64,000 nt of DNA, taken from the NCBI GenBank assembly GCA_035288045.1, contig DATEBA010000023.1, positions 3,356 through 67,355 on the forward strand. The letters run 5' to 3'. This stretch comes from Actinomycetota bacterium (lineage in GTDB: Bacteria > Actinomycetota > UBA4738 > HRBIN12). Below, piece by piece: positions 17,281-50,274 of the stretch; the stretch's first letter is position 1, and the number at the start of each line of letters is the position of its first letter. The notes beneath the pieces are model-generated. The model did not search any database, was not told the origin of the DNA, and worked only from the letters and a program-made list of their open reading frames with translations. A program made the translations under genes and the position numbers.

Positions 17281-18063
17281 TCAGCTATCGCCCCGCCGAG
17301 CCACCGTCAGGAACCCCGTATGCCCTACCATGCGGTGGTCCGGGCGTACGCTCCGACCGGAGACGTGCCAGCTACGGTGGAGCGTCTCGAACGTTTCGAC
17401 GTGGCGGAAACCGTTTTCCTCGAGGGCGAGAACGAGGGCCTGGACCTGGACCGTGGTCGGCAGGTAAGTACACAGCACCCCTCCCGGCTCCAGGACTGCC
17501 GCGGCGACCTCTAGGAGCCTCCACGGCTCGGGAAGGTCGAGTACGAGCCGGTCGAAGCGCTCGCCGGTGCCGGCGATCTCGTTCACATCGCCCTCGCGGA
17601 GGTCGAGCCACGCCGGGAGCTTGCCATGGAACTGCTCGATGTTGGCGATCGCGCGCTCGCGGTGCTCCGGGCGGATCTCGTAGGAGACCACTCGGCCCTC
17701 CGGGCCCGTCGCCCGGCAGAGCGCGATCGTGAGCGAGCCGGACCCGGTCCCGGCTTCGAGCACCCGCGCTCCCGGGAAGACGTCGGCCTCCACGAGTATC
17801 GCGCCGAGGTCCTTCGGGTAGACGACCTGAGCCCCCCGGGGCATCTTCAGGACGAAGTCGGACAGACGAGGTCGGTAGGCGACGAGCGCCATCCCGCCGC
17901 TGGTCTCGACTGTCGTTCCCTCCCCCCGTCCGATGAGCGCGCCGTGCGCAAGCGCGCCCCCGTGGGTGTGGAACGTCCCGCCGGACTGGAGCCGTACGAG
18001 GTACGTCCGACCGCGCCCGTCCACGAGGAGCGCGCGTTCACCGGGCTCGAAGGGCGCGCTCAC
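17281..18063 (-). CDS. trmI: tRNA (adenine58-N1)-methyltransferase TrmI
   Basis: GTG start at 18063, internal to ORF 17281..18219, overlapping the upstream gene's stop as GTGA. SAM-dependent methyltransferase motifs (VLEAGTGSGSLT, DLPEPW) are typical of TrmI/Gcd14. Confidence 0.75.
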   Translation of the reverse strand: MSAPFEPGERALLVDGRGRTYLVRLQSGGTFHTHGGALAHGALIGRGEGTTVETSGGMALVAYRPRLSDFVLKMPRGAQVVYPKDLGAILVEADVFPGARVLEAGTGSGSLTIALCRATGPEGRVVSYEIRPEHRERAIANIEQFHGKLPAWLDLREGDVNEIAGTGERFDRLVLDLPEPWRLLEVAAAVLEPGGVLCTYLPTTVQVQALVLALEENGFRHVETFETLHRSWHVSGRSVRPDHRMVGHTGFLTVARRGDS

Positions 18064-19241
18064 GGCATCGCGCCCCCGTAGATCTCCGCCGGGAGGACCT
18101 CCTCCGACAGCTCGACGGCCACCTCGCGGTCGGCGGGAGGCGGGCCCAGCCGCTCGCCGAGGATCTGCGCGCGCGCGCGACAGAACGCGCAGAACCGTCC
18201 GGTCGTCGGCTGGCCGCACCGCTCACACTCGCGCAGCTCGGCCCTCTCCTCGCTCCGGAACAAGGGGGCTCCGCGATCCAGGTAGCCCAGGAAGAACTGC
18301 GCCTTCGTTCCCGGGGACCCCGCCTCGAGCCCGTTCATGGCCCCCTTGTAGCGCAGCTGCGTGTTGCCCGCCACGAGCGGGCACTCCTCCACGACGTAGT
18401 CGATCCGTCGCAGGAACGCGTAGGCGGCCGTCTCGAGCTCCGAGAGACGGTGGAGCGGCTTCACCTTCCTGACCATCCCCTCCGCGGCCGGCAGAACCGG
18501 GAACTGCCGCGCGATGTACTCGGTCTGCCAACGGAGGGTGTTGCCGAGCAATGTCGCGGCTTCGTCGTCCAGGTTGTGGCCCGTAGCGACCACGTCGAAG
18601 CCGTGCTCGAGCGCCGCGCGGTTGAACACGTACCGCTTGGAGAGCCCGCACACGGCGCACGTCGAGCGCGAGCCCCTCCGCCCCGCCGTCGGCACGTCGA
18701 ACCCGTAGGCCTGCGCCAGGTCGACCTCGAGCAGGGTCGCGCGCCGGTCCTCGGCGAACCGCCTCGCGACCTCGGCCGACCCGTGTGAGTACTGCCCGAT
18801 CCCGAGGCCGAGGTAAAGGCCGGTCACCCGGTAGCCGAGGTTGAGCAGCACGTCCCAGAGCCCGAGCGAGTCCTTGCCCCCCGACACGGCGACGAGAACG
18901 CGATCCTCCGGCCCGAACATGGCGTAGGCCTTGATCGCCCTCTTCACCTGCTCGCGGACGTGATGCAGGAAGCAGCCACGGCAGAAGGCCGCGTTGTGGC
19001 GGCGGATCTCGACCACCGCGGCACCGCCGCACCGCCTGCACTTGATCGCGCCGCCGGAGATCACCGGACGGATCTCGACGAGATCGCCCTCCGTCACGTG
19101 GTCCTCGCGCATCAGCAGCTCGCGGTCTCGGATCACCAGCACCGTGTCCGGATCGAGGTCGAGCTCGCGGAGGATGTCGCGGACCTTGCGATTGCCGGAG
19201 GTCTCCACCTCGCGGTCGGGGTTGCGCAGCTTGACCTTCAC
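18060..19241 (-). CDS. ttuA: tRNA 2-thiolation protein TtuA-like (PP-loop ATPase with N- and C-terminal zinc fingers) with an N-terminal ThiS/MoaD-like beta-grasp domain ending in GG
   Basis: ORF 393 aa. Residues 1-64 MKVKLRNPDREVETSGNRKVRDILRELDL...GDLVEIRPVISGG have the ThiS/MoaD sulfur-carrier signature and terminal Gly-Gly. They are followed directly by CRRCGG...FCRGC, the VLVAVSGGKDSLGLWDVL PP-loop, CAVCGLSKR, VVATGHNLDDEAA and the C-terminal RECERCGQPTTGRFCAFCR. The TtuA part closely parallels the sequence I recall for Thermus TtuA. Confidence 0.75.
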   Translation of the reverse strand: MKVKLRNPDREVETSGNRKVRDILRELDLDPDTVLVIRDRELLMREDHVTEGDLVEIRPVISGGAIKCRRCGGAAVVEIRRHNAAFCRGCFLHHVREQVKRAIKAYAMFGPEDRVLVAVSGGKDSLGLWDVLLNLGYRVTGLYLGLGIGQYSHGSAEVARRFAEDRRATLLEVDLAQAYGFDVPTAGRRGSRSTCAVCGLSKRYVFNRAALEHGFDVVATGHNLDDEAATLLGNTLRWQTEYIARQFPVLPAAEGMVRKVKPLHRLSELETAAYAFLRRIDYVVEECPLVAGNTQLRYKGAMNGLEAGSPGTKAQFFLGYLDRGAPLFRSEERAELRECERCGQPTTGRFCAFCRARAQILGERLGPPPADREVAVELSEEVLPAEIYGGAMP

Positions 19242-20460: not shown

Positions 20461-21630
20461 TCAGGCGGAGAGCGCCGCGGCGGGGACCTTCTTGCTCGGG
20501 TCCACGAAGGGAAGCGCGGCAGTCTTTCCCGCGGTCCGCTCCCCTCCCCGCCAGAGGATCTCGACCTCGATCCCCGGATCGGCGAGCTCGATCGGAACCC
20601 AGACGTACCCGATGTTCTTCTCCAGGCGAGGCGACCAGATCAGGTCCGTCACGTAGCCGACCTCCCGGCCGTCGTGGAGCGCGGGCCGGACCTCCGAGAT
20701 CTCGAAGTCGAGCGCCTCGCCCGGAACCTCGATTCCGACGAGCTTCTTCGTCACGCCCTCGTTGCGGATCCTCGCGAGGGCGGCCTTGCCGATGTAGTCG
20801 GCTTGCTGCTCCTCGACGAGTCGTTCGAGGCCCATCACCTCGAACGGGTTGTTGCGGATGGTCATGTCCGAGCCGTAGTTGAAGATGCCCGCTTCGATCC
20901 GGCGGGCCTCAACCGGCGCGATCGGGCGGATCTGGTAGGGCTCCCCCGCCTGCATGATCCTGTCCCACATCTCGCTCCCACGCGTCGGGTCCATCAGGTA
21001 GATCTCGAACCCGACCTCGCCAGTCCAGCCCGTCCGGCTGACCACGACCGGGATGTCGTCGAGCCGCGTCTGCATCGTCCAGTAGTACTTGATCTCAAGG
21101 ACCCCGTCACCGAACAGGTCGCGCAGCACGTCCTTGGACTTCGGCCCCTGCACCTGCACCGGGTAGACGTCCGGCTCGTCGACGCGGACGTCCAGCCCCG
21201 AGTTGACCGCGACGCCACGCGCGTAGAGGCCGGCGTCGCTGTCGGCCAGAGCCAGCCAGTACCGGTTCTCCTCCAGGCGGAGAAGAACGGGGTCGTTCAC
21301 GATCCCGCCGTCCTCCGCCATGATCAACGCGTACTTGCCCTGGCCGACCGCGCACTTGTCGAGGTCCCGGCAGGTCAGCATGTTCGTGAACCGGTGGGCG
21401 TCGGAACCTGTGATCTCGACGATCCGCTCGACCGAGACGTCCCAGAGCGTCACTTGCTCGAGGAGGTGCCAGTACTCCTTCACCGGGTCGTCGTAGTAGC
21501 CCGGCAGGTACATGTGGTTGTAGATGTCGTATGCCTTGCACCCGGCCTCGAGCGTCTTCTCAAAGAACGGCGACTTCCTGTACCAGGGGCCGAAATAGAG
21601 CGTGGTCGACGTGTTGCCGAACTCGGTCAT
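20461..21630 (-). CDS. GcvT-family (aminomethyltransferase-like) THF-dependent methyltransferase/demethylase, paralog 1
   Basis: ORF 389 aa with GcvT N- and C-domain patterns. Paralogous to 23115..24269 (LWDVSVER..., VVVSRTGWTGEVG..., PFVDP). Confidence 0.7.
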   Translation of the reverse strand: MTEFGNTSTTLYFGPWYRKSPFFEKTLEAGCKAYDIYNHMYLPGYYDDPVKEYWHLLEQVTLWDVSVERIVEITGSDAHRFTNMLTCRDLDKCAVGQGKYALIMAEDGGIVNDPVLLRLEENRYWLALADSDAGLYARGVAVNSGLDVRVDEPDVYPVQVQGPKSKDVLRDLFGDGVLEIKYYWTMQTRLDDIPVVVSRTGWTGEVGFEIYLMDPTRGSEMWDRIMQAGEPYQIRPIAPVEARRIEAGIFNYGSDMTIRNNPFEVMGLERLVEEQQADYIGKAALARIRNEGVTKKLVGIEVPGEALDFEISEVRPALHDGREVGYVTDLIWSPRLEKNIGYVWVPIELADPGIEVEILWRGGERTAGKTAALPFVDPSKKVPAAALSA

Positions 21631-21712
21631 GCTGGTGCCCTCCCTGTCCGAACCCCGGGCTCTCCACCCGCGCTGATTGAATCTTCAGTCAAGCCGGCCC
21701 TCCCGTGCAAGT

Positions 21713-22669
21713 TCAGGCGGAAGTGGGCACGGCCACCTCGGGGCGCGGGAGGAGGCCCGCTTCCTCGATGAGCGCCAGGATGTCTTCGCGACCTCCGATG
21801 GACATGAGGTGGACCCCCGAGACCCCGGGTAGCTCCCTGGCCCCGTGGAGGACCTCGAGGGCGATCCTCCTACCCTCCTCCGCCTGGCGTTCGGCCGGCG
21901 TTCCCTCCATGCGCTCGATCACCCAGTCCGGGACATCGATACCGGGTACCTGATCGCGGAGGTACCGTGCTCCCCTTAGGGAACGGGGGATGAAGATGCC
22001 GACGAGCACGAACACTCGGTCGAGCGCTCCGAGCTCGCCGGCGCGAGCCATGAACTCGCGGAGCTTGGACACGTTGAAGCAGATCTGGGTCTGGATGAAC
22101 TGGGCGCCCGCCTCCACCTTCTTCTGGAGACGGATCGGGCGGAAATCGAGCGGAGGCGCGAACGGGTTCTCGACCGCGCCGATGAAGAATCGCGGAGACT
22201 CCGTGAGCCGGCGCCCGGATAGGTAGGTCCCGTCGTCGCGCAAGATCCGAGCGATCCGAATCAGGTGGAGCGAATCGAGGTCGTAGATCGCCTTTGCCTC
22301 TGGGTGGTCGCCGGCGGACACGTCGTCGCCGGTCATGAGCATCACGTTCCGCACCCCGAGCGCGGCCGTGCCGAGCAAGTCCGCCTGAAGTCCGAGGCGG
22401 TTCCGGTCGCGGCAGGTGAACTGCGCGATCGGCTCGATGCCGCGATCGACGAGCAGGTGCGCGGCCGCGACCTGCGAGATGTGGGGGTGAGCGGCGCTGT
22501 TGTCGGTGCAGTTCACGGCGTCGACCTTGCCCCGCAAGGGATCCGCGACGGCGTGGACCGACTCGGGATCAGCGCCGTCGGTCGTCTCGAGCTCGCAGGT
22601 GACGGCGAAGTGCCCGCCCCTGAGCAGCGCTTCCAGTCGACTCGCCGGTGGGCGTCCGGTCTGGCTCAT
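21713..22669 (-). CDS. metF: 5,10-methylenetetrahydrofolate reductase (MetF family)
   Basis: Internal start M140 of ORF 21713..23086, in an ATGA overlap with the upstream gene. HFAVTCELETTDGAD...FTCRDRN...LLGTAALGVRNVMLMTGD is the MTHFR TIM-barrel pattern. Confidence 0.75.
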   Translation of the reverse strand: MSQTGRPPASRLEALLRGGHFAVTCELETTDGADPESVHAVADPLRGKVDAVNCTDNSAAHPHISQVAAAHLLVDRGIEPIAQFTCRDRNRLGLQADLLGTAALGVRNVMLMTGDDVSAGDHPEAKAIYDLDSLHLIRIARILRDDGTYLSGRRLTESPRFFIGAVENPFAPPLDFRPIRLQKKVEAGAQFIQTQICFNVSKLREFMARAGELGALDRVFVLVGIFIPRSLRGARYLRDQVPGIDVPDWVIERMEGTPAERQAEEGRRIALEVLHGARELPGVSGVHLMSIGGREDILALIEEAGLLPRPEVAVPTSA

Positions 22670-23046
22670 TCGCGCTTCACTTGCTCGTCGGCCCATCCTG
22701 CCGGCACCAGCTTGTCCCGCCGGGTGAGTAGGTTCACCCAGGACGAGGTGCCCTCCAGCTGCCAATCCACCGGCGGGTTCAGGTGCTCCATATGGTCCCG
22801 CCAGAGCGGAAGCTTCCGAGAGCGCTCCCAGGCAACCACCCAGGTGCACATGCGGTCGGGTTCCACCTCGCAGTTGCCGTTCTGCAAGACGCCGCCGCAG
22901 GGACCGTTGCGGAGGTTCTTCGGGCAGGTCATTGGGCATCGGAGCCCCGTGGAGTGCAGGATGCACTGGCCGCACATCCGGCAGTCCCAGAGCGGCTCCT
23001 TCGTGACCTTCTCCACGAGGAGGATCGCTCGCGTGCCGAGCCCCAT
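22666..23046 (-). CDS. MTHFR C-terminal-domain (MetV-like) Cys-rich zinc-ribbon protein
   Basis: Internal start M138 of ORF 22666..23457. CRMCGQCILHSTGLRCPMTCPKNLRNGPCGG...NCEVEPDRMCTW gives a multi-Cys pattern, as in the stand-alone MTHFR_C partner of MetF. Confidence 0.6.
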   Translation of the reverse strand: MGLGTRAILLVEKVTKEPLWDCRMCGQCILHSTGLRCPMTCPKNLRNGPCGGVLQNGNCEVEPDRMCTWVVAWERSRKLPLWRDHMEHLNPPVDWQLEGTSSWVNLLTRRDKLVPAGWADEQVKRE

Positions 23047-23114
23047 CTTCGGGCGCCCCCTCGCATTGGCCGTCTCCACCTGCCACCTCCCGTGGGGATC
23101 TCCCCGCCCCTCGA

Positions 23115-24269
23115 CTAGGAGACGGGGATCTGCTTGTTCGGGTCGACGAACGGCATCTCGACCACGGTCGCAGTCCGCGTGCCCCACTCGCTCTCCACGA
23201 TCACCCTCGTGCCGAGCTCGGACCGAGCCGTCGGCAGCCAGGCGAAGCCGATGTTCTTCTCCAGACGCGGCGAGTAGATCGCGGAGGTCACCTTTCCGAT
23301 CTTCGCCCCATCCTCGACCACCGGCCACTTCACGTAGTTGAGCGCGGGGAACGGGGCGCCGTCGAGCTCGACCCCGTTGATCCTGCGGGTCACGCCCCGC
23401 TCCTTGATCCGTCGGAGCGCCTTGAGGGAGATGCTCGCGTCGTCCGGCACGTCCCAATCGACCAGGCGCTCCAACCCCATCTCGAGCGGATCGTTCTCGT
23501 AGGTCATGTCTGCGCCCCAGTTGAAGATCGCGCCCTCGATCCGCCTGATGTCCGAGGGGCCGGTCGGTTTGATGTTGAACTCCTCGCCGGCCTTCATGAT
23601 GGCCTCGTAGACCTCCGCGCCCCGAGACGCATCGATCGTGTAGACCTCGTAGCCAACCTCGGAGGTCCAGCCCGTCCGCGTCACGACCACCGGCACGCCT
23701 GCGATCTCCGCGTGCGTCCAGAAGTAGTACTTGAGGTCCAGGATGCTCTCGCCGAGGAGCTTCACCATCAGGTCCTTGGACTTCGGGCCCTGGACCTGGA
23801 GCGGCGCCACGTCGGCCTCGCGGATCGTGACATCGAGATCTGGGTATGCGTTCTTCAACCCGCGCGCGAACAGAAGGGCGTCGGACGACGCCAGTGCGAA
23901 CCAGAACGTGTTCTCGTCCATCCTAGTGAGGACGGGGTCGTTGATGATCCCGCCGTCGCTGTCGACGATGAGGACGTACTTGGCCTGGCCCACTGCGCAC
24001 TTCGACAGGTCCCGCGGGGTGAGGAGCTGGGCGAACGTGAAACCGTCGGGGCCGCCGATCTCCAGGCACCGCTCGACCGCGACGTCCCAGAGCGTCACGT
24101 CGTTCAGCAGAGCCTCGAACTCCGCCTCGAATGAGTCGAAGCGGATCGGGAAGTACATGTGGTTGTAGACCGTGAACCCCTTCGGCCCGTACTTCTGCGT
24201 GGCCTCGTGGTACGGCGTGCGGCGGCCCCGCGCCCCACGCTGCACCAGGCTCATGTCGAACTCGGGCAT
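23115..24269 (-). CDS. GcvT-family THF-dependent methyltransferase/demethylase, paralog 2
   Basis: ORF 384 aa. Same domain pattern as 20461..21630. Confidence 0.7.
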   Translation of the reverse strand: MPEFDMSLVQRGARGRRTPYHEATQKYGPKGFTVYNHMYFPIRFDSFEAEFEALLNDVTLWDVAVERCLEIGGPDGFTFAQLLTPRDLSKCAVGQAKYVLIVDSDGGIINDPVLTRMDENTFWFALASSDALLFARGLKNAYPDLDVTIREADVAPLQVQGPKSKDLMVKLLGESILDLKYYFWTHAEIAGVPVVVTRTGWTSEVGYEVYTIDASRGAEVYEAIMKAGEEFNIKPTGPSDIRRIEGAIFNWGADMTYENDPLEMGLERLVDWDVPDDASISLKALRRIKERGVTRRINGVELDGAPFPALNYVKWPVVEDGAKIGKVTSAIYSPRLEKNIGFAWLPTARSELGTRVIVESEWGTRTATVVEMPFVDPNKQIPVS

Positions 24270-24401
24270 GCCCTCCTCCTCGATGTCTCGGGCTACGGAG
24301 AGACCGAGGGCGCCTGCGGCCCTGCCTCCGCGCCCTTCCGGGTCGTCGGCGTATCGTGCGAGCCCCGCCCCCCCGCAGCAACACCGCGCGTTGACCCCTG
24401 G

Positions 24402-25355
24402 TCAGGAGGCCGCCCCGCCGGAGTCGTTGGCCTGCGGCGGAGGGAAGATGCGCCCCTCCAGGTAGCCGCGGCCGACGATGGCCATGAACAGGTGAACCTC
24501 GTCCTCGTTCCAGGCGAAGGGCCCTTGCCGGGCGCCACGCGAGGCTAGCCCTCGCTGGACCGACTCGCACGCGGCCCAGTCCTCCCTGTTCGTCACGTCC
24601 CAGAACTCGCTCGCGTAGGAGGGGTCGAAGTCCGCGAGCTCCGTAACCTCCGGCGGAAAGAGCCAGGAGCACTCCACCCACGTCTTTCCCGGGGTGAGCG
24701 GATCCATGCGGTGCGTCATCACGTAGTCCGGGTGCAGGCTGATCAGCAGGTTAGGGAACAGCCCGTAGTAGTAGACCTCGCGGCGTTGCTTCTCGTCCAG
24801 GCCGCGGATCGGCACGCCCCCGCCCCTGCCGGTGAACGACATGGTCTCGGCGAAGTCCATGAGCTCCATGTTCCCACCGACCCAGCATCCGTTGTGGGGG
24901 AAGTTCTCACCACTGTCCACCGGCGTCACCTTGCACAGGGCCGGATGGATGCTCGGGCAGTGGTAGCACTCGTGGTAGTTCTCCGTAATCGTCTTCCAGT
25001 TAGCGTTCACGACGTATTCGTGCTTCGCCGCTACGAAGAGACGCTCGGGCTCCCACGGCGCGACGAGCTCATCGAGGTTCCCCACGTGCTCCTCGAAGGG
25101 GAGCGCATAGCCGGAGGCATCGGCGAACGCCCACCCGTGCCACTCGCGAACGACCCCGGGGCCCGAGAGTTCCTCCGCCCGACCGAGGCACACCCAGGAC
25201 CCCTCGAAGAAGTGGGAGCGTTCCCAGGCGAGAACCTCCTCTGACAGGTAGGCCTCCGGTGGCAGGGTCCGGCTCGCGCCCAGAGTGGACCTGAGCGCGG
25301 TCCGAATGGCCTGCGCGTCGACGGGTGCGATGGGTTCGACGGCTGCCCGGCTCAT
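24402..25355 (-). CDS. ring-hydroxylating oxygenase alpha-subunit homolog lacking the Rieske [2Fe-2S] domain
   Basis: ORF 317 aa. N-terminal LAWERSHFFEGSWVCLGRAEEL and the catalytic-domain motif NWKTITENYHECYHCPSIHP (mononuclear Fe His pair) are present. Only a relic (REWHGWAF) of the second Rieske box is present, and no CxH box. Confidence 0.55.
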   Translation of the reverse strand: MSRAAVEPIAPVDAQAIRTALRSTLGASRTLPPEAYLSEEVLAWERSHFFEGSWVCLGRAEELSGPGVVREWHGWAFADASGYALPFEEHVGNLDELVAPWEPERLFVAAKHEYVVNANWKTITENYHECYHCPSIHPALCKVTPVDSGENFPHNGCWVGGNMELMDFAETMSFTGRGGGVPIRGLDEKQRREVYYYGLFPNLLISLHPDYVMTHRMDPLTPGKTWVECSWLFPPEVTELADFDPSYASEFWDVTNREDWAACESVQRGLASRGARQGPFAWNEDEVHLFMAIVGRGYLEGRIFPPPQANDSGGAAS

Positions 25356-32221: not shown

Positions 32222-32307
<86 letters not shown>

Positions 32308-43769: not shown

Positions 43770-45697
43770 CAGGCGCTCGCCCTCCCCTCGACACGATGGA
43801 CCCGATCGTAGACGGCGCGGGCGAGCTCGGGGCCGAATCCGGGCGTAGCTTCGATCTCTCCGAGCGAAGCCCGGCGCAGCTCGGCAAGCGACCCGAATCT
43901 CCGCAGGAGAGTCCTCTTCCTCGCCGGACCGACGCCAGGGACGTCGTCCAGCGGGGAGGCCAGCGCGCGGCGAGCCCGCTTCTTCCGGTGGTACGCGATG
44001 GCGAACCGATGAGCCTCGTCGCGGAGGTGCTGGAGGACGAAGAGGGCCTCCGAGCCCCGCGGGATCCGCAGAGGGTCGGGACGGCCGGGGAGATAGACCT
44101 CCTCGAGGCGCTTCGCGAGCCCGACGGCGGGCAGCTCGAGTCCATGCTGCGCCAATGCCCTTGACGCCGCGCCGAGCTGCCCGCGGCCACCGTCCACGAC
44201 GATCAGCGAGGGTGGGTAGGCGAACCGCCGGCGCCCTGGTTCCTCGTCCTCGCCCTCGGCCAGCTTGGCGAACCTTCGCCGGAGCATCTCCCCCATACTG
44301 GCGAAGTCGTCCTGGCCGGGTACGCCCTTGATCTCGAACCGCCGGTAGTCCGAGCGCTTCGGAATCCCGTCCTCGAACACCACCATCGAGCCGACCGTGT
44401 CCGTGGGGCCGAGGTTCGAGACGTCGTAGCACTCGATCCGGAGGGGCGCCTGTGGCAGGCCGAGCTCGTTCGCGAGCTCCGCCAGCGCCCGGGAGCGTGC
44501 GCCGAAGTCGGAGGCGCGGCGGAGCTTGTGCCGCCTGAAGGCCTCCTCGGCGTTCCTGGTCGCGGTTTCGAGCAGGCGTCGCTTGGCGCCCCGCTCAGGA
44601 ACGCCGAGCGATACCTTTCCGCCACGCCGCTCCGAGAGCCACCTCTCGAGCACCGCCCGGTCCTCCGGCATCACCGGTACGAGGAAGCGGGGCGGCACCT
44701 CCGCGTCCTCACGCTCCATCGCGAGCTCGCGGATGAAGGAGGCGAGCAGGGCGGGCGGGTCGAGGTGCTCCACCTCGTCCACGACCCAGCCCTTCTGGCC
44801 CGTCACCCGGCCGCGCCTGACGAAGAAGACCTGGAACGCGGCCTCGAGATCATCCTCGACCAGACCGACGACGTCGAGGTCCTCCGGCTGCGTGAGGACC
44901 ATCTCCTGGCTCTCCATAGCGCGCCGAGCGGCGGTGAGCTGGTCGCGGAGCTTGGCAGCCAGCTCGAACTCGCGGCGCTCGGCGGCCTGCCGCATCTCGT
45001 TTTGAAGCCGCGCGAGGACGGGTCGCTCGTTCCCGGCCAGGAAGTCCTCCAGCGCCGCGACGTGGGCGCGGTAGGAGTCCTCGGTCACGCCTGTCGTCTC
45101 GGGCACGCACGGACCCGCGCACCGGCCGATGTCGTAGTAGAGGCACGGCCGTCGCGCGCGGGCTCGCTGGTCGAAGAACGAGTTGGAGCAGGTGCGGACC
45201 GGGAAGACTCGGGTGAGCGCGTCGAGCGTGTCCCGGATCGCGTACGCGTGCCCGAACGGGCCGAAGTACCGCGCGCCCTTCCTCTTGCGTCCGCGGAGAA
45301 CCTGCGCCCGCGGCCACCGCTCCCCGACCGTGATGGCGAGGTATGGGTAGGACTTGTCGTCCTTGTACCGGATGTTGAAGCGCGGCCGGTGCTCCTTGAT
45401 CAGGTTGTACTCGAGCATCAGGGCGTCGACCTCGCCTGAGGCCACGATCCACTCGACGGACTCGGCGGCGGCGAGCATGGCCTCGGTCCGGGCGTGCTGG
45501 GGTTTGGCCCAGTAGGTCGAGACGCGCTTGCGGAGCGAGCGCGCCTTGCCGACGTAGATCACGCGCCCGTCGCCGTCGCGGAAGAGGTAGGCGCCGGGCT
45601 CGTCGGGGATCGATGATCCTTCAGGCCGCGGAGCGCTCACGCGGCCATTGTAGGAGAGGGCACCCGCCGGGGCGGGGTACCTACTTGGTCTTCGCAA
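43769..45697 (-). CDS. uvrC: excinuclease ABC subunit C
   Basis: ORF 642 aa. GIY-YIG N-terminus (GAYLFRDGDGRVIYVGKARSLRKRV), UvrBC-interaction region, RNaseH-like and C-terminal HhH (GVGPARKRTLLRRFGS). Start may be V20. Confidence 0.9.
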   Translation of the reverse strand: MRRPSRYPAPAGALSYNGRVSAPRPEGSSIPDEPGAYLFRDGDGRVIYVGKARSLRKRVSTYWAKPQHARTEAMLAAAESVEWIVASGEVDALMLEYNLIKEHRPRFNIRYKDDKSYPYLAITVGERWPRAQVLRGRKRKGARYFGPFGHAYAIRDTLDALTRVFPVRTCSNSFFDQRARARRPCLYYDIGRCAGPCVPETTGVTEDSYRAHVAALEDFLAGNERPVLARLQNEMRQAAERREFELAAKLRDQLTAARRAMESQEMVLTQPEDLDVVGLVEDDLEAAFQVFFVRRGRVTGQKGWVVDEVEHLDPPALLASFIRELAMEREDAEVPPRFLVPVMPEDRAVLERWLSERRGGKVSLGVPERGAKRRLLETATRNAEEAFRRHKLRRASDFGARSRALAELANELGLPQAPLRIECYDVSNLGPTDTVGSMVVFEDGIPKRSDYRRFEIKGVPGQDDFASMGEMLRRRFAKLAEGEDEEPGRRRFAYPPSLIVVDGGRGQLGAASRALAQHGLELPAVGLAKRLEEVYLPGRPDPLRIPRGSEALFVLQHLRDEAHRFAIAYHRKKRARRALASPLDDVPGVGPARKRTLLRRFGSLAELRRASLGEIEATPGFGPELARAVYDRVHRVEGRASA

Positions 45698-47369
45698 CGG
45701 CCGAGACGAAGGTGCCGGTCATCGTCGTCGGGTGCACGTCGCAGCGGAAGAAGAAGACCCCCTCGTCAAGGGCCTTTACCTCGTAATCGATCGAGTCGGG
45801 GCCGGCTATCAGCTCACCGACGAAGAGCTTCGCCGCGGCGGGATCGGCCAGCGGATCGGTCTCGTGGATCGCCACGTTGTGCTGGACGCCGGCATCCTGG
45901 TTGTCGAAGCCGATCGTGAGGTCCTCGCCGGCCGGCGCCGCCAGGCAGTCGGTGTCGAAGCCCGACACGGCCGCGCCGGCAGGGGCGACGATCTCGAGCT
46001 CGGTTCCCTCGGGCTCGCACGCCGCCGCCGGAGGCCCCGTCGGCAGCGCCGCGGTCTCGGTCCCCGGCCCGCCCGTCGGGCTCGGCATCGCGAGCGCCAG
46101 GCCCTCCGTGTCGCCCAGGGCTCCGAGCAGCAGGTCGCCGTTCTCTCGGTCGTACCAAGCGAGGTAGACGGTCGAGCCGTCGGGCGCGACGCCCACCGCG
46201 GGCGAGTCGCCGCCCTCGGTCCCCTGGGTCTGGACCGGGGCGAACGACGAACCGCTCCCCGATGCCAGCCCGATCGCTTCCGACGCCCGGTCGTACCAGG
46301 CCACGTACTCCGTTCCCTGATCGTCCACGGTAACGCTCGTCGTAGCCGTACCAGTGCCCTCGCCCTCACCGAGCGTGGCGGCGGTGCCGACGAACCACCC
46401 GCCCCCCGAGGAGGAAGCGACGTGTACCTCGCTCCCCCCGGCCGCGAAGTAGGCGACGTGCGCGTTCCCGTCGCCGTCGACGGCCATCGAGAGCCCGGCG
46501 CCTCCTCCTCCCGTCTCGACCGGCGCGGTGCTCCAGGAGTCCTTGGGGCCGAGCCTGGCGAACATCGGGCTTCCCGCCGCGGTGTCGACGTAGGCGACGA
46601 ACGGCTCGCCGGCCGCGTCGAATCCCACCGCGGTTCGATCGGGCTGAGGGCAGCTCGAGCACCGGGCGATCTCGGCCACGCTGGCGCTCTCCCAGCCCTT
46701 CTCGCCTGGCCTTGCCAGCGTCACCGCCTGGGACTCCCCCTCGTTCAGGGTGTAGGCGACCGCTGGGCTCCCGGACCCATCGACCGCGATCCCCGGCGCG
46801 CCCAGAGGTCCGGCTGTCGTGAGCGGCTCTTGCAGCACAACGACCTGCTCCACGGCGAAGGAGCCGCCCGCGTTCGTCCCGTACCAGAGGCCGGTGTCTG
46901 CAGCCCACGCCACGTGAAGCTTCCCCTGGTCGTCGACCGCGACCGCCGTGCCGTTCACGTTGGTCGGGGTCGCGGTCGCGAGCTCCTCTAGGATCTGTGG
47001 CCCGAAGGCGACCTCCACGTTGGCGATCTCCTCAAGCATCGCGGCGGCGCCGCGGGTCCAGATCCCGCCGGAGATAGTTGCCACGGACACCGCAGGCAGG
47101 GAGGGCGCCCCTATCGGTCGCTGCACCGGGAGCTCTCCGGCCTCGAGCTCCTTCACGAACGAGAACGACACGACGTAAGGGATCCCGTTGGAGTCGATCG
47201 CGATCGACGGGTCGGCGCCCGCATCGTCCAGGAACTCGACTACTAGGGGGACGAACCGACGCCCGTCGCCGAGGTCCACCTCGGAGGCCGTTGGTTGCGC
47301 GCAAGCCGCAGCGATGACGCCTAGCGAGCAGACGAGGACGAGCGCTCTCCTGGACAAGACGGGGCGCAT
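45681..47369 (-). CDS. secreted lipoprotein: repeat-rich (beta-propeller-like) domain fused to C-terminal cupredoxin (type-1 copper) domain
   Basis: Internal M27 start of ORF 45681..47447. MRPVLSRRALVLVCSLGVIAAACA signal plus lipobox. Repeated ...YVAW/HVAY/VAY... blades. C-terminal HNVAIH ... FFFRCDVHPTTMTG gives a His/Cys/His/Met ligand set. Confidence 0.6.
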   Translation of the reverse strand: MRPVLSRRALVLVCSLGVIAAACAQPTASEVDLGDGRRFVPLVVEFLDDAGADPSIAIDSNGIPYVVSFSFVKELEAGELPVQRPIGAPSLPAVSVATISGGIWTRGAAAMLEEIANVEVAFGPQILEELATATPTNVNGTAVAVDDQGKLHVAWAADTGLWYGTNAGGSFAVEQVVVLQEPLTTAGPLGAPGIAVDGSGSPAVAYTLNEGESQAVTLARPGEKGWESASVAEIARCSSCPQPDRTAVGFDAAGEPFVAYVDTAAGSPMFARLGPKDSWSTAPVETGGGGAGLSMAVDGDGNAHVAYFAAGGSEVHVASSSGGGWFVGTAATLGEGEGTGTATTSVTVDDQGTEYVAWYDRASEAIGLASGSGSSFAPVQTQGTEGGDSPAVGVAPDGSTVYLAWYDRENGDLLLGALGDTEGLALAMPSPTGGPGTETAALPTGPPAAACEPEGTELEIVAPAGAAVSGFDTDCLAAPAGEDLTIGFDNQDAGVQHNVAIHETDPLADPAAAKLFVGELIAGPDSIDYEVKALDEGVFFFRCDVHPTTMTGTFVSAVAKTK

Positions 47370-47382
47370 ATTAGCAAGCCTT

Positions 47383-50274
47383 CTAGGCGGGCGAGCCGCC
47401 TCCGCCGCGAGCAGAGACCGCGACGCGGGGCGCCCGCGGTGTCCCAAGGACCTCCGCCAGAAACCGCCCCGTGTGGGACCCCGGGTGCGTGGCCACCTCC
47501 TCCGGCGGACCCGCCACGACGACCTCGCCGCCCGCCGCTCCCCCCTCGGGCCCGAGGTCGACGATCCAGTCCGCCGTCTTCACGACGTCCAGGTTGTGCT
47601 CGATCACGACCACCGTGTTGCCGCTCGAAACCAGGCGCTGAAGGACCGCGAGGAGCTTGCGGATGTCCTCGAAGTGCAGGCCGGTCGTCGGCTCGTCGAG
47701 CGCATAGAGCGTGTTCCCCGTGGCCCGCTTGTGCAGCTCCGAGCCGAGCTTGATGCGCTGCGCCTCGCCGCCGGACAGCGTCGGCGCCGGCTGCCCGAGT
47801 TTGATGTAGCCGAGCCCCACGTCGGATAGCGTCTGAAGGTAGCGAGCCAGGATCGGGATGTTCCGGAAGAACTCAAGCCCCTCGTCCACGCTCATCTCCA
47901 GGACGTCCGCGATCGAGCGGCCCTTGTACCTCACCTCGAGCGTCTCGCGATTGTACCGCCTCCCCTTGCAGACCTCGCAGGTCACGTACACGTCGGGAAG
48001 GAAGTGCATCTCGATCTTGATCTGGCCGTCGCCGGCGCAGTTCTCACACCGCCCCCCGCGAACGTTGAACGAGAACCGCCCGGGCTGGTAGCCGCGCACG
48101 CGCGCCTCCGGCGTCTGCGCGAACAGCTTCCGGACGTGATCGAACATGCCGGTGTAGGTCGCGGGGTTCGACCGCGGCGTTCGTCCTATCGGCGACTGAT
48201 CGATGTCGATCACCTTGTCGATCTGCTCCCAGCCGACGAGGCGCTTGTGCTTGCCGGGCAGCATGCGGGACCGATAGACCTTCTGGTTGAGTGCCCGCAA
48301 CAGAACGTCCTGGACCAGGGTCGACTTCCCAGAGCCCGATACACCGGTCACGCACACGAACAAGCCCAGCGGGATCTGGATCGTCACGTCTTTCAGGTTG
48401 TGCTCGCGGGCGCTCTCGAGTCGAAGCGTGCGTTCCCCGGGGACGCGGCGGACCTCGGGAACCGGGATCGAGCGACGCCCGGATAGATAGGCACCGGTCA
48501 ACGAGCCCTCCTCGTCGAGAAGGCCCTTCAGCGGCCCTGAGTAGACGATCTCCCCCCCGTGCTCTCCGGCGCCGGGGCCGATGTCGACGACGTGATCCGA
48601 CGCCTCGATCGTAGCTTCGTCGTGCTCGACGACGATCAGCGTGTTCCCGAGGTCACGGAGACGCAGCAGGGTGTCGATGAGCCGCCGGTTGTCGCGCTGG
48701 TGCAACCCGATCGATGGCTCGTCGAGGATGTAGAGCACTCCGACTAGGCCGCTGCCTATCTGCGTCGCTAGCCGGATCCGCTGCGCCTCGCCGCCGGCGA
48801 GCGTCGCCGACGCGCGGTCGAGCGAGAGGTAGTCGAGGCCGACGTCGACCAGGAAGCCGAGCCGGGCGCGGATCTCCCTTAGGAGCCGCTCGGCGATCAT
48901 CCGCTCGCGGTCCGAGAGCTCGACCGCGTCGATGAAGTCGAGCGTGTCGCGTATCGACTTCGTGGTGAGCTGCCATATAGTGATCCCGCCGACGGTCACT
49001 GCCAGGCTCTCCGGCCGGAGACGCGCGCCCTTGCAAGAGCGGCAGGGAACCTCCCGCATGAACTGCTCGAGGCGCTCGCGCTGCGTGTCGGAATCGGTCT
49101 CTGCGTGCCGCCGCTCCACGTTCGGGAGCAGGCCTTCGTAGGCGGTCCAGTACGACCGGAGCCGCCCGTATCGGTTCCGATACCTGACGTAGATCTCCTC
49201 GTCGGAGCCGTAGAGGATCACGTCCCGCGCCTTCTTCGCTAGCTTCTTCCACGGCGTGCTCACACCGAACCCATGCGCATCGGCGACGGCCTCGAGCACG
49301 CGGTCCCAGTACTCGAGGCGCGAGCCTCCCCAGGGCGCGAGCGCTCCCTCGGAGATCGAAAGGTCCGGATCCGGCACTACGAGCTCGGCGTCGACCTCGA
49401 GGCGGATGCCGAGCCCGTCGCACGTCTGGCAGGCGCCGTAGGGCGAGTTGAACGAGAAGTTCCGCGGCTGGAGCTCGTCGAAGGAGATGCCGCAATGCGT
49501 GCACGCGAGGTTCTGCGAGAAGCTCTGGACCTCCTCGTGCCCGTCGGTCCGCACCGCGACGGCAGCGATGCCCTCGGCGAGCTGGAGCGCGGTCTCGATC
49601 GAGTCGGCCACCCGCCGGCGGATGTCCGGCTTGGCGACGAGCCGGTCGACGACCACCTCGATCGTGTGCTTGTAGTGGCGTTCCAGGCGGATCGACTCGG
49701 ATAGGTCGCGGACGTCGCCGTCGATCCGGGCGCGGACGAACCCCTTGCGCGCCAGGTCGCCGAGGAGCTTCTCGTACTCGCCCTTGCGACCCCGGACGAC
49801 CGGCGCGAGCACCTGGAACCTCGTGCCCTCCGGCAGCTGGAGCACCTGGTCGACGATCTGCTCCGGGGTCTGCCGGCCGATCGGGCGACCGCACTTCGGA
49901 CAGTGTGGGTGGCCGATCCGCGCGAACAGCACCCGCAGGTAGTCGTAGATCTCGGTGATCGTCCCGACGGTCGACCTTGGGTTCTTGGAGGTCGACTTCT
50001 GGTCGATCGAGATCGCCGGCGATAGCCCCTCGATGAAGTCGACGTCCGGCTTCTCCATCTGCCCGAGGAACTGGCGGGCGTAGGCGGAGAGCGACTCCAC
50101 GTAGCGCCGCTGACCCTCCGCGTAGATCGTGTCGAAGGCGAGCGAGCTCTTGCCCGAGCCGGAGAGGCCCGTGAACACGATCAGCCTGTCCCGGGGAAGC
50201 TCGAGCGTGATGTTCCTCAGGTTGTGCTCACGGGCGCCGTGGATGATTAGCTTCTCGGTGCCCACGGCGGGCAT
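47383..50274 (-). CDS. uvrA: excinuclease ABC subunit A
   Basis: ORF 963 aa. Two ABC modules ([10 protein letters not shown]; [10 protein letters not shown]), zinc fingers, LSGGEAQR signatures. N-terminus matches the GAREHNL pattern. Functional start may be the GTG at codon 4 (50265). Confidence 0.9.

Follow-up and report, generated by a model that had tools for sequence, protein, structure and literature searches.

The 64,000-nucleotide stretch of Actinomycetota DNA analysed here (contig DATEBA010000023.1, positions 3,356 to 67,355; hereafter the window) carries a minus-strand gene cluster in which two paralogous GcvT-fold proteins, designated A and B, accompany a two-subunit methylene-tetrahydrofolate reductase (MTHFR; subunits V and F, encoded by metV and metF) and the remnant of a Rieske oxygenase (O). 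Judged by sequence, A and B constitute a new, uncharacterised subfamily that is nearest to the dimethylsulfoniopropionate (DMSP) demethylase DmdA among known proteins, and is neither GcvT nor LigM/DesA. Across the loci examined, the recurrent element is the B-A pair, usually with a GbcA-like Rieske oxygenase, and metVF is an addition specific to the actinobacterial lineage. By analogy with DmdA, we propose, at a probability of roughly 45%, that B and A would be DmdA-type methyltransferases making 5-methyl-tetrahydrofolate (5-methyl-THF) from an onium or betaine-type compound, with MetVF oxidising the product.

The initial annotation had described five minus-strand open reading frames (ORFs) separated by short gaps, with an ATGA overlap between metF and the gene for its Cys-rich partner; this anatomy was confirmed in the sequence and by an independent gene caller, which returned the same five products. 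The features are as follows:

20461-21630, minus strand: A, second DmdA-like GcvT-fold paralogue, of the canonical 'A-prime' type (389 aa; Pfam GCV_T 146 bits, GCV_T_C 52 bits)
21713-22669, minus strand: F, MetF subunit of a MetVF-type methylene-THF reductase (318 aa; PF02219 MTHFR 90 bits)
22666-23046, minus strand: V, MetV-like Cys-rich small subunit (126 aa; PF12225 'MTHFR C-terminal' 91 bits)
23115-24269, minus strand: B, DmdA-like GcvT-fold THF-binding protein, a slow-evolving core gene (384 aa; Pfam GCV_T 142 bits, GCV_T_C 66 bits)
24402-25355, minus strand: O, remnant of a GbcA/Stc2/CntA-type Rieske oxygenase alpha subunit (317 aa; Pfam Ring_hydroxyl_A, PF00848, 168 bits over residues 105-294)
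25152-25157, minus strand: junction of the in-frame Rieske-domain deletion in O, at Gly67/Val68 (from an alignment with eight relatives; coordinates derived from the O start at 25355)

Intergenic spacings are 132 bp (O-B), 68 bp (B-V) and 82 bp (F-A), and in the ATGA overlap at 22669-22666 the metF ATG occupies 22669-22667 and the metV TGA 22668-22666. The longest ORFs of V and F begin far upstream (TTG at 23457 and GTG at 23086, respectively); the supported starts are ATG 23046 and ATG 22669. On reading the sequence, a purine-rich, Shine-Dalgarno-like stretch precedes O, B, V and A.

Identity of the GcvT-fold pair

A and B share 49% identity over 371 aa and both carry GCV_T and GCV_T_C domains, which makes them true paralogues, as the initial annotation had it. 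The best NCBIfam model for both proteins is DmdA (NF009133), on which B scored 345.6 bits and A 324.8 bits against an equivalog cut-off of 410, a shortfall of 64-85 bits; orthologues in two other loci (L012 and L093) scored 308-329 bits on the same model. The trimethylamine N-oxide demethylase (Tdm) model returned 187-216 bits for the pair, and the GcvT models 149-154 bits (TIGR00528, cut-off 235.85) and 181 bits (PRK00389, cut-off 300). Similarly, the best relative in the PDB was DmdA of Pelagibacter ubique (3tfh), matched over its full length by B (E = 9e-73) and A (E = 1.4e-64), followed by the Tdm C-terminal domain and then by true T proteins. Across hidden Markov model (HMM) and PDB scores, DmdA was ahead of Tdm by 110-160 bits. 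Pairwise identities of B and A were 35% and 31% to DmdA, 31% and 29% to Bacillus subtilis GcvT, and 33% and 32% to Tdm. The homology to both DmdA and GcvT spans the full length and thereby fixes the fold of A and B.

The motif RTGW-x5-(Y/F)-E-x-Y is kept in A and B, whereas Tyr stands in place of the Trp in GcvT (RTGY) and Tdm. The folate-site motif W-x6-E-x-Y reads RTGWTSEVGYEVY in B, RTGWTGEVGFEIY in A and RSGWSKQGGYEVY in 3tfh. In DmdA, W171 has been described as DMSP-specific, and E178 and Y180 as folate-binding (PMC7487153); these residues map to W197, E204 and Y206 of 3tfh. The DmdA-type Trp is also found in many other unassigned clades.

We placed the pair in neighbour-joining (NJ) trees built on representatives at 50% identity from a set of 1.8 billion proteins. 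A and B formed sister sub-clades within a clade of their own (bootstrap 70), apart from GcvT and outside the clade of real DmdA (bootstrap 75-87), in trees whose deep nodes reached only 9-16%. Tree neighbours came without exception from metagenome-assembled genomes (MAGs) or metagenomes and bore generic names only, and no characterised member was found in the A/B clade or in the clades next to it. Public records call these proteins 'glycine cleavage T protein', 'aminomethyltransferase' and, once, DmdA (the B orthologue of bacterium HR12); none of these names is borne out by the family membership tests applied here.

Two assignments were rejected on these data. The initial annotation had offered a LigM/DesA-type O-demethylase locus beside a DmdA-type one, and only the latter branch stood (346 and 325 bits, 3tfh): A and B scored 27-62 bits against cut-offs of 580 (LigM) and 800 (DesA) and are about 80 aa too short, and the PDB match to LigM covers only some 80 residues of B (157-238, E = 1.5e-5). 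Nor do the two paralogues group with bona fide GcvT, a grouping that the same annotation had listed, together with a genome lacking any other gcvT, as refuting its reading; the trees, the HMM cut-offs and the RTGW motif agree in this, and there is no gcvH, gcvP or riboswitch nearby. No H- or P-protein domain (GCV_H, GDC-P) was present among the gene calls within about 10 kb or in the further ORFs scanned. The interpretation offered in the initial annotation is partly supported: the cluster would be a module for THF-linked demethylation that belongs with DmdA and not with LigM.

The reductase subunits and the truncated oxygenase

The MTHFR and its Cys-rich partner, recognised as such in the initial annotation, can be specified further. 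The F product contains the PF02219 domain and the V product PF12225, with an NGPCGG signature and Cys clusters (8 Cys in all), and metV lies directly upstream of metF and overlaps it; on these features V and F are assigned to the MetVF type of MTHFR. The best NCBIfam match of F is the MTHFR half of a YitJ-type protein (209 bits), its similarity to the Escherichia coli and Thermus MetF structures is weak (E ~1e-5), and its closest homologues (~70% identity) belong to the same Actinomycetota lineage. V has no relative in the PDB. In the acetogen Clostridium ljungdahlii, metV, whose product bears the NGPCGG signature, likewise lies upstream of metF and overlaps it; MetF of the acetogen enzyme binds FMN and MetV binds [4Fe-4S] clusters, and MetFV occurs mainly in anaerobes (PMC8515935).

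The fifth product had been called an oxygenase homologue, which holds for its catalytic domain and needs amending for the rest, O being a derivative of an enzyme of about 400-420 aa from which the Rieske domain has been deleted. O has no Rieske match in Pfam and lacks the CxH...CxxH ligand domain of the [2Fe-2S] cluster; its orthologues in sister species are ORFs of about 400-450 aa, 29 of which retain the Rieske ligands (CRHRGH...CPYH). In the alignment with eight relatives, a clean in-frame gap of about 88 aa between Gly67 and Val68 removes the whole [2Fe-2S] domain. The catalytic domain is intact, and the region of its His-rich iron motif, ENYHECYHCPSIHP, is conserved with relatives. A product identical over all 317 aa is encoded within an unchanged gene order on 13 contigs, the eight shown coming from eight different samples; the deletion is therefore not an assembly error. 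The strains that carry the Rieske-less O differ by less than 0.3% at the DNA level, too little for an inference on selection. Other lineages have frameshifted or fragmentary copies of O (L079, L050 and L037).

Full-length relatives of O gave their best PDB matches to the carnitine monooxygenase CntA (6y8j), the stachydrine demethylase Stc2 (3vca) and 4qup, and their best NCBIfam match to GbcA, on which they scored 174-197 bits and the window O 81 bits against a cut-off of 670. The solved relatives act on carnitine and proline betaine, and the GbcA model represents glycine betaine monooxygenase. By these matches, the full-length relatives belong to the Rieske oxygenases that attack quaternary ammonium compounds. 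Having lost the [2Fe-2S] domain, the window O is probably inactive. A gene for a reductase partner was found in none of the loci examined.

Distribution and conservation across related loci

A peptide-pattern scan of species-representative genomes returned 393 stretches, and the best 80 of these, ranked by similarity to B (L004-L083), form the sister-species set. The window B is 81-87% identical to its counterparts in this set; the genomes are uncultured MAGs, nearly all Actinomycetota, and the names of two mention soil or groundwater. Their shared gene order is ABC-F, amidohydrolase, O (where present), B, A, V and F (where present), HtrA, TtuA, TrmI, Mpa and Dop, and through the window this housekeeping backbone runs on to uvrABC, gap, tpi and rpsA. 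Of the 80 loci, 70 have B and A next to each other, and most of the others are cut by contig ends; A lies about 7 kb off in L033 and L055, and the Gemmatimonadota MAG L042 (Ca. Kutchimonas denitrificans; 82% identity) has B without A.

Among the 65 assessable sister loci, 21 have O only, 24 VF only, 7 both O and VF, and 13 neither, metVF thus lying in or beside the cluster in 31. These states follow clades, O having been lost or having decayed many times while B and A stayed, and an ancestral O-B-A-V-F cluster followed by repeated losses is the likeliest history. The negative association between O and metVF (Fisher p = 0.002) was rejected as independent evidence, as it reflects a few clade-level losses. 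All relatives with metVF show the order B-A-V-F, and the B-V-F-A order of the window is unique among the 80 sister species. The view of the five genes as a single unit, put forward in the initial annotation, has to be given up for the smaller B-A unit, usually with a Rieske oxygenase. Between O and B, some relatives carry inserted genes for a secreted repeat protein, a methyltransferase, a glycosidase-like protein or an epimerase; on reading, these seem to have no relation to the cluster, nothing like a reductase or transporter is among them, and we did not count them as parts of the module.

Median identity to the window protein across the sister species was 83% for B (a value biased somewhat upward by the ranking of loci on similarity to B), 81% for Mpa, 78% for Dop, 75% for TtuA, 73% for V, 72% for O, 68% for F, 66% for the amidohydrolase and 60% for A, placing B at the level of the proteasome ATPase Mpa. 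Furthermore, the identity of B to its Chloroflexota outgroup was the same in loci with O (76.4%) and in loci without it (76.1%, p = 0.49).

Four Chloroflexota-type loci (L092-L095) carry a B orthologue (76-79% identical to the window protein) followed by an A orthologue (75-77%), the two genes overlapping by 4 bp or lying a few bases apart. A Rieske oxygenase with 36-44% identity to O lies upstream in one locus and downstream in three, a PotABCD-like ABC transporter adjoins three, and metVF is absent from all four. B identities of 76-82% across phyla are far above expectation and point to horizontal transfer together with strong constraint.

The window A stands apart from its counterparts: its identity to the A proteins of the sister species is 60%, against 74% among those proteins themselves, yet it reaches 74-79% to thousands of metagenome proteins, some of them named Chloroflexota or Limnocylindria. 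In the A proteins of the sister species Asn replaces the folate-site Tyr (RTGWTA(I/V)(P/Q)GFE(V/I)NL), and the window A is canonical at this site. Together with the unique gene order, this suggests that the window A was replaced by horizontal transfer or is the product of differential paralogue loss.

Beyond these loci, distant clade members (44-48% identical to B) were found in L084, L088 and L090. The setting in L088 comprises an OpuA-type betaine ABC transporter, a DAO protein, a GcvT-like protein, a homocysteine S-methyltransferase domain, an MTHFR, SoxB and SoxD; in L084 a GcvT-like protein occurs with a DMGDH-like protein and ETF, and the family member of L090 stands beside a Rieske/LigXa_C oxygenase. 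In L087, two FAD amine oxidases and an ADI/DDAH-family protein lie between a closer relative of B type (57% to B) and a second, distant GcvT-like gene. In the genome of a further, distant relative (L091), canonical gcvT, gcvH and gcvP form an operon of their own, about 3 kb away from the family member. These neighbourhoods suggest that many 'split' systems of an oxidase plus a THF module are now annotated as GcvT. In the literature, we found no Rieske oxygenase paired with a GcvT-like module and no GcvT-fold betaine demethylase.

The window itself has 65-72% G+C and belongs to a contig of an uncultured Actinomycetota population (ENA ERZ27254873 k141_2802434). It is a conserved actinobacterial backbone, with TatC, PafBC, DUF3866, PafA, Dop, Mpa, TrmI, TtuA and HtrA on one side of the cluster, and an Opp-type ABC transporter, tpi, gap, uvrC, uvrA, a chromate transporter, uvrB and rpsA on the other. 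Every gene in the cluster region is on one strand; because the cluster is embedded in this housekeeping backbone, shared strand and short gaps say little. Outside the cluster, the 64-kb window contains no GcvT or MTHFR paralogue. Scans of the cluster and its surroundings turned up neither a sigma-70-like promoter nor a riboswitch nor any convincing terminator. An Rfam scan of the cluster region gave no match even at E<=1; the sole Rfam match in the window is a tRNA at 32222-32307 (minus strand), and the glycine riboswitch is absent from the window. A repeat scan detected no flanking mobile-element repeats, its only signal being the similarity between A and B.

Directly upstream of the cluster lies a YtcJ-like Amidohydro_3 protein (~552 aa; 25492 to ~27150, minus strand), for which the PDB offers only uncharacterised YtcJ-like hydrolases as relatives. 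It holds the same upstream position in 64 of the 80 sister loci and is missing from all Chloroflexota-type loci, for which reason we rejected it as a module member and treat it as a syntenic neighbour. A TtuA-like tRNA 2-thiolation protein at 18060-19241 (minus strand; LIM domain and PP-loop) has an N-terminal ThiS/SAMP2-like ubiquitin-fold domain (ThiS part at 24.6 bits in Pfam, residues 9-64), and would be a fusion of a sulfur carrier with TtuA. A 632-aa ORF between uvrC and uvrA (45681-47579, minus strand) has a coding-like third-position G+C of 0.87 and no Pfam match at E<=1e-5.

Proposed methyl transfer to folate, competing readings and known systems

In the proposed scheme, B and A would methylate tetrahydrofolate at N5 to yield 5-methyl-THF, the donor being an onium compound, most likely either a betaine-type quaternary ammonium compound or a sulfonium compound. 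The two proteins might act on successive or related substrates, or as a heteromer. MetVF, working in the oxidative direction, would convert 5-methyl-THF to 5,10-methylene-THF and pass the methyl carbon into one-carbon (C1) metabolism, and an intact GbcA-like Rieske oxygenase would serve the same pathway as an oxygen-dependent N-demethylase. The data show the family assignments, the gene anatomy, the conservation patterns and the deletion, and from them we infer the reaction chemistry, the direction of MetVF and the class of substrate. Betaine-type N-methyl compounds are suggested as substrates by the family of the oxygenase and by the neighbourhoods of the wider clade.

We favour methyl transfer to folate because A and B are much more similar to DmdA than to the other folate-dependent enzymes compared, and because an MTHFR, which a methyl-THF-forming demethylase needs, adjoins the pair in the window, in the 31 sister species noted above and in the distant L088. 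The reading is favoured further because B is independent of O: it is kept and equally conserved where O is lost, intact beside the Rieske-less O, and alone in L042. B is also far more conserved than the oxygenase between phyla (76-79% versus 36-44%). Finally, both proteins keep the Trp, Glu and Tyr of the DmdA motif, and betaines and other N-methyl compounds are a common theme of the relatives of O and of the more distant clade members.

Several observations weigh against this proposal. A and B fall under the DmdA equivalog cut-off and outside the DmdA clade, so that DmdA chemistry is not transferable with confidence, and the deep nodes of the trees have the low bootstraps given above. The pair recurs with a formaldehyde-releasing Rieske N-demethylase in several gene orders and at least two phyla, as a formaldehyde-capture model predicts. 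The metVF genes are missing at about half of the sister loci and at the four Chloroflexota-type loci, and could encode a housekeeping reductase. Adjacent transporters or regulators, which the initial annotation had suggested looking for, gave no hint of a substrate in any of the Actinomycetota loci.

Formaldehyde capture is the main alternative, which we regard as possible but doubtful. By analogy with DmmD, the Tdm C-terminal domain and the GcvT-like domains of DMGO and SoxA, B and A would be THF-binding modules that take formaldehyde or a carbinolamine from O to form 5,10-methylene-THF, and MetVF would work reductively, supplying methyl-THF for methionine synthesis. The precedents are close in kind: DmmD is a stand-alone GcvT-domain protein needed for growth together with DmmABC, for which its authors propose conjugation of formaldehyde with THF (PMC5520151), and Tdm channels formaldehyde to its own THF domain (PMC13619132). 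B and A stand beside a GbcA-like oxygenase in the inferred ancestral Actinomycetota cluster as well as in the four Chloroflexota-type loci, and other family members adjoin the Rieske/LigXa_C oxygenase, FAD amine oxidases or the DAO protein. Against it stand the divergent conservation of B and oxygenase between phyla, the unchanged constraint on B where the adjacent O is lost, its solitary occurrence in L042, the intact B and A beside a Rieske-less O and the lead of DmdA over Tdm in the scores.

A housekeeping role is very unlikely. Here B would serve the lineage as its true T protein of glycine cleavage or as some other core enzyme of C1 metabolism, V and F would be the usual MTHFR that supplies methionine synthesis, O would be a pseudogene, and the genes would be neighbours only through inherited synteny. 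The conserved backbone around the cluster (ABC-F, amidohydrolase, HtrA, TtuA, TrmI, Mpa, Dop), a B as conserved as Mpa, the lack of nearby transporter or regulator genes and the uninformative single-strand arrangement would all suit such a role; but the GcvT models score 149-181 bits against cut-offs of 236-300, the motif is RTGW and not RTGY, the glycine riboswitch and the H- and P-protein domains are absent over the ranges given above, the B-A pair travels with a Rieske oxygenase into unrelated Chloroflexota-type contexts, and in L091 a canonical gcv operon is present separately from the family member. The least probable reading, that one or both of A and B are genuine DMSP demethylases in a DMSP locus of a soil actinobacterium, can appeal to the best HMM and PDB matches, the conserved Trp said to be DMSP-specific and the HR12 record, but is opposed by the 64-85-bit shortfall, the 31-35% identity to P. 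ubique DmdA, the position outside the DmdA clade, the presence of the same Trp in many unassigned clades, the absence of dmdBCD-like genes (acyl-CoA ligase, acyl-CoA dehydrogenase and enoyl-CoA hydratase domains) among the gene calls within about 10 kb, the origin of the 80 closest genomes from uncultured MAGs, two with soil or groundwater in the name, and the quaternary-amine type of the accompanying oxygenase.

Returning to methyl transfer to folate, a bolder version can be formulated, which we consider speculative and on balance unlikely: B with A would be a widespread non-corrinoid, oxygen-independent methyltransferase from betaine-type or other onium compounds to THF, spread among MAGs of uncultured Actinomycetota, Chloroflexota and Gemmatimonadota. 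It would correspond, with a GcvT fold, to MtgB or BHMT, would so far have escaped characterisation, and would be taking over the function of the GbcA-like oxygenase that decays beside it. Its conservation (76-87% over three phyla) would then stem from a central role in feeding abundant environmental methyl groups to folate via a reversed MetVF in an aerobe.

The pair has thousands of close metagenome homologues, besides the 393 species-representative stretches, and is unstudied. Should it form methyl-THF from a betaine-like or sulfonium compound, it would represent an unrecognised turnover route for the carbon and nitrogen of methylated osmolytes, and a MetVF-type reductase would for the first time be given a physiological setting outside anaerobes. 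The Rieske oxygenase next to the pair has decayed repeatedly, which amounts to a natural experiment in the passage from oxygenase-based to folate-based demethylation, and the cluster is a well-defined target for enzyme discovery.

Among known systems, DmdA is the closest. Like DmdA, A and B are stand-alone GcvT-fold proteins of about 370-390 aa with the NDPV and W-x6-E-x-Y motifs; unlike it, they score below the cut-off at 31-35% identity in a separate MAG-only clade, and are paired as tandem paralogues next to a Rieske oxygenase, MetVF or both in uncultured Actinomycetota and Chloroflexota-type MAGs. Sphingobium sp. SYK-6 has a ligM-metF-ligH arrangement, in which a THF-dependent demethylase stands beside an MTHFR that oxidises its 5-methyl-THF product. 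The logic of a demethylase beside an MTHFR is shared with the window cluster, but LigM and DesA are about 450-470 aa long (NCBIfam NF047885, NF047633) compared with 384-389 aa for A and B, and here the MTHFR is of the two-subunit MetVF type, with no adjacent formyl-THF-related gene.

Acetogen MetVF resembles V and F in gene order and overlap, in the NGPCGG signature and Cys clusters, and in a MetF distant from that of E. coli. It differs in the size of its MetV (23.5 kDa in C. ljungdahlii, against 126 aa here) and in its setting, the present host being an actinobacterium whose relatives carry oxygenases, with no Wood-Ljungdahl genes nearby. With GbcA, Stc2 and CntA, the likeness lies in the full-length relatives of O, which match these structures, and in the intact catalytic domain of the window O; the window O nevertheless lacks the entire Rieske domain, and even its full-length relatives remain far under the GbcA cut-off. 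DmmD (compared by description) and the Tdm C-terminal domain (PDB 9q59) are GcvT-fold THF modules genetically coupled to a formaldehyde-releasing N-demethylase; B and A may resemble them in this, their coupling to a Rieske oxygenase being recurrent and yet dispensable for the retention and conservation of B. In place of DmmABC or the Zn domain of Tdm, the partner here is a Rieske oxygenase, the module is doubled into a pair of paralogues, B is also kept where the partner is missing, and the Tdm HMM scores are clearly under those for DmdA.

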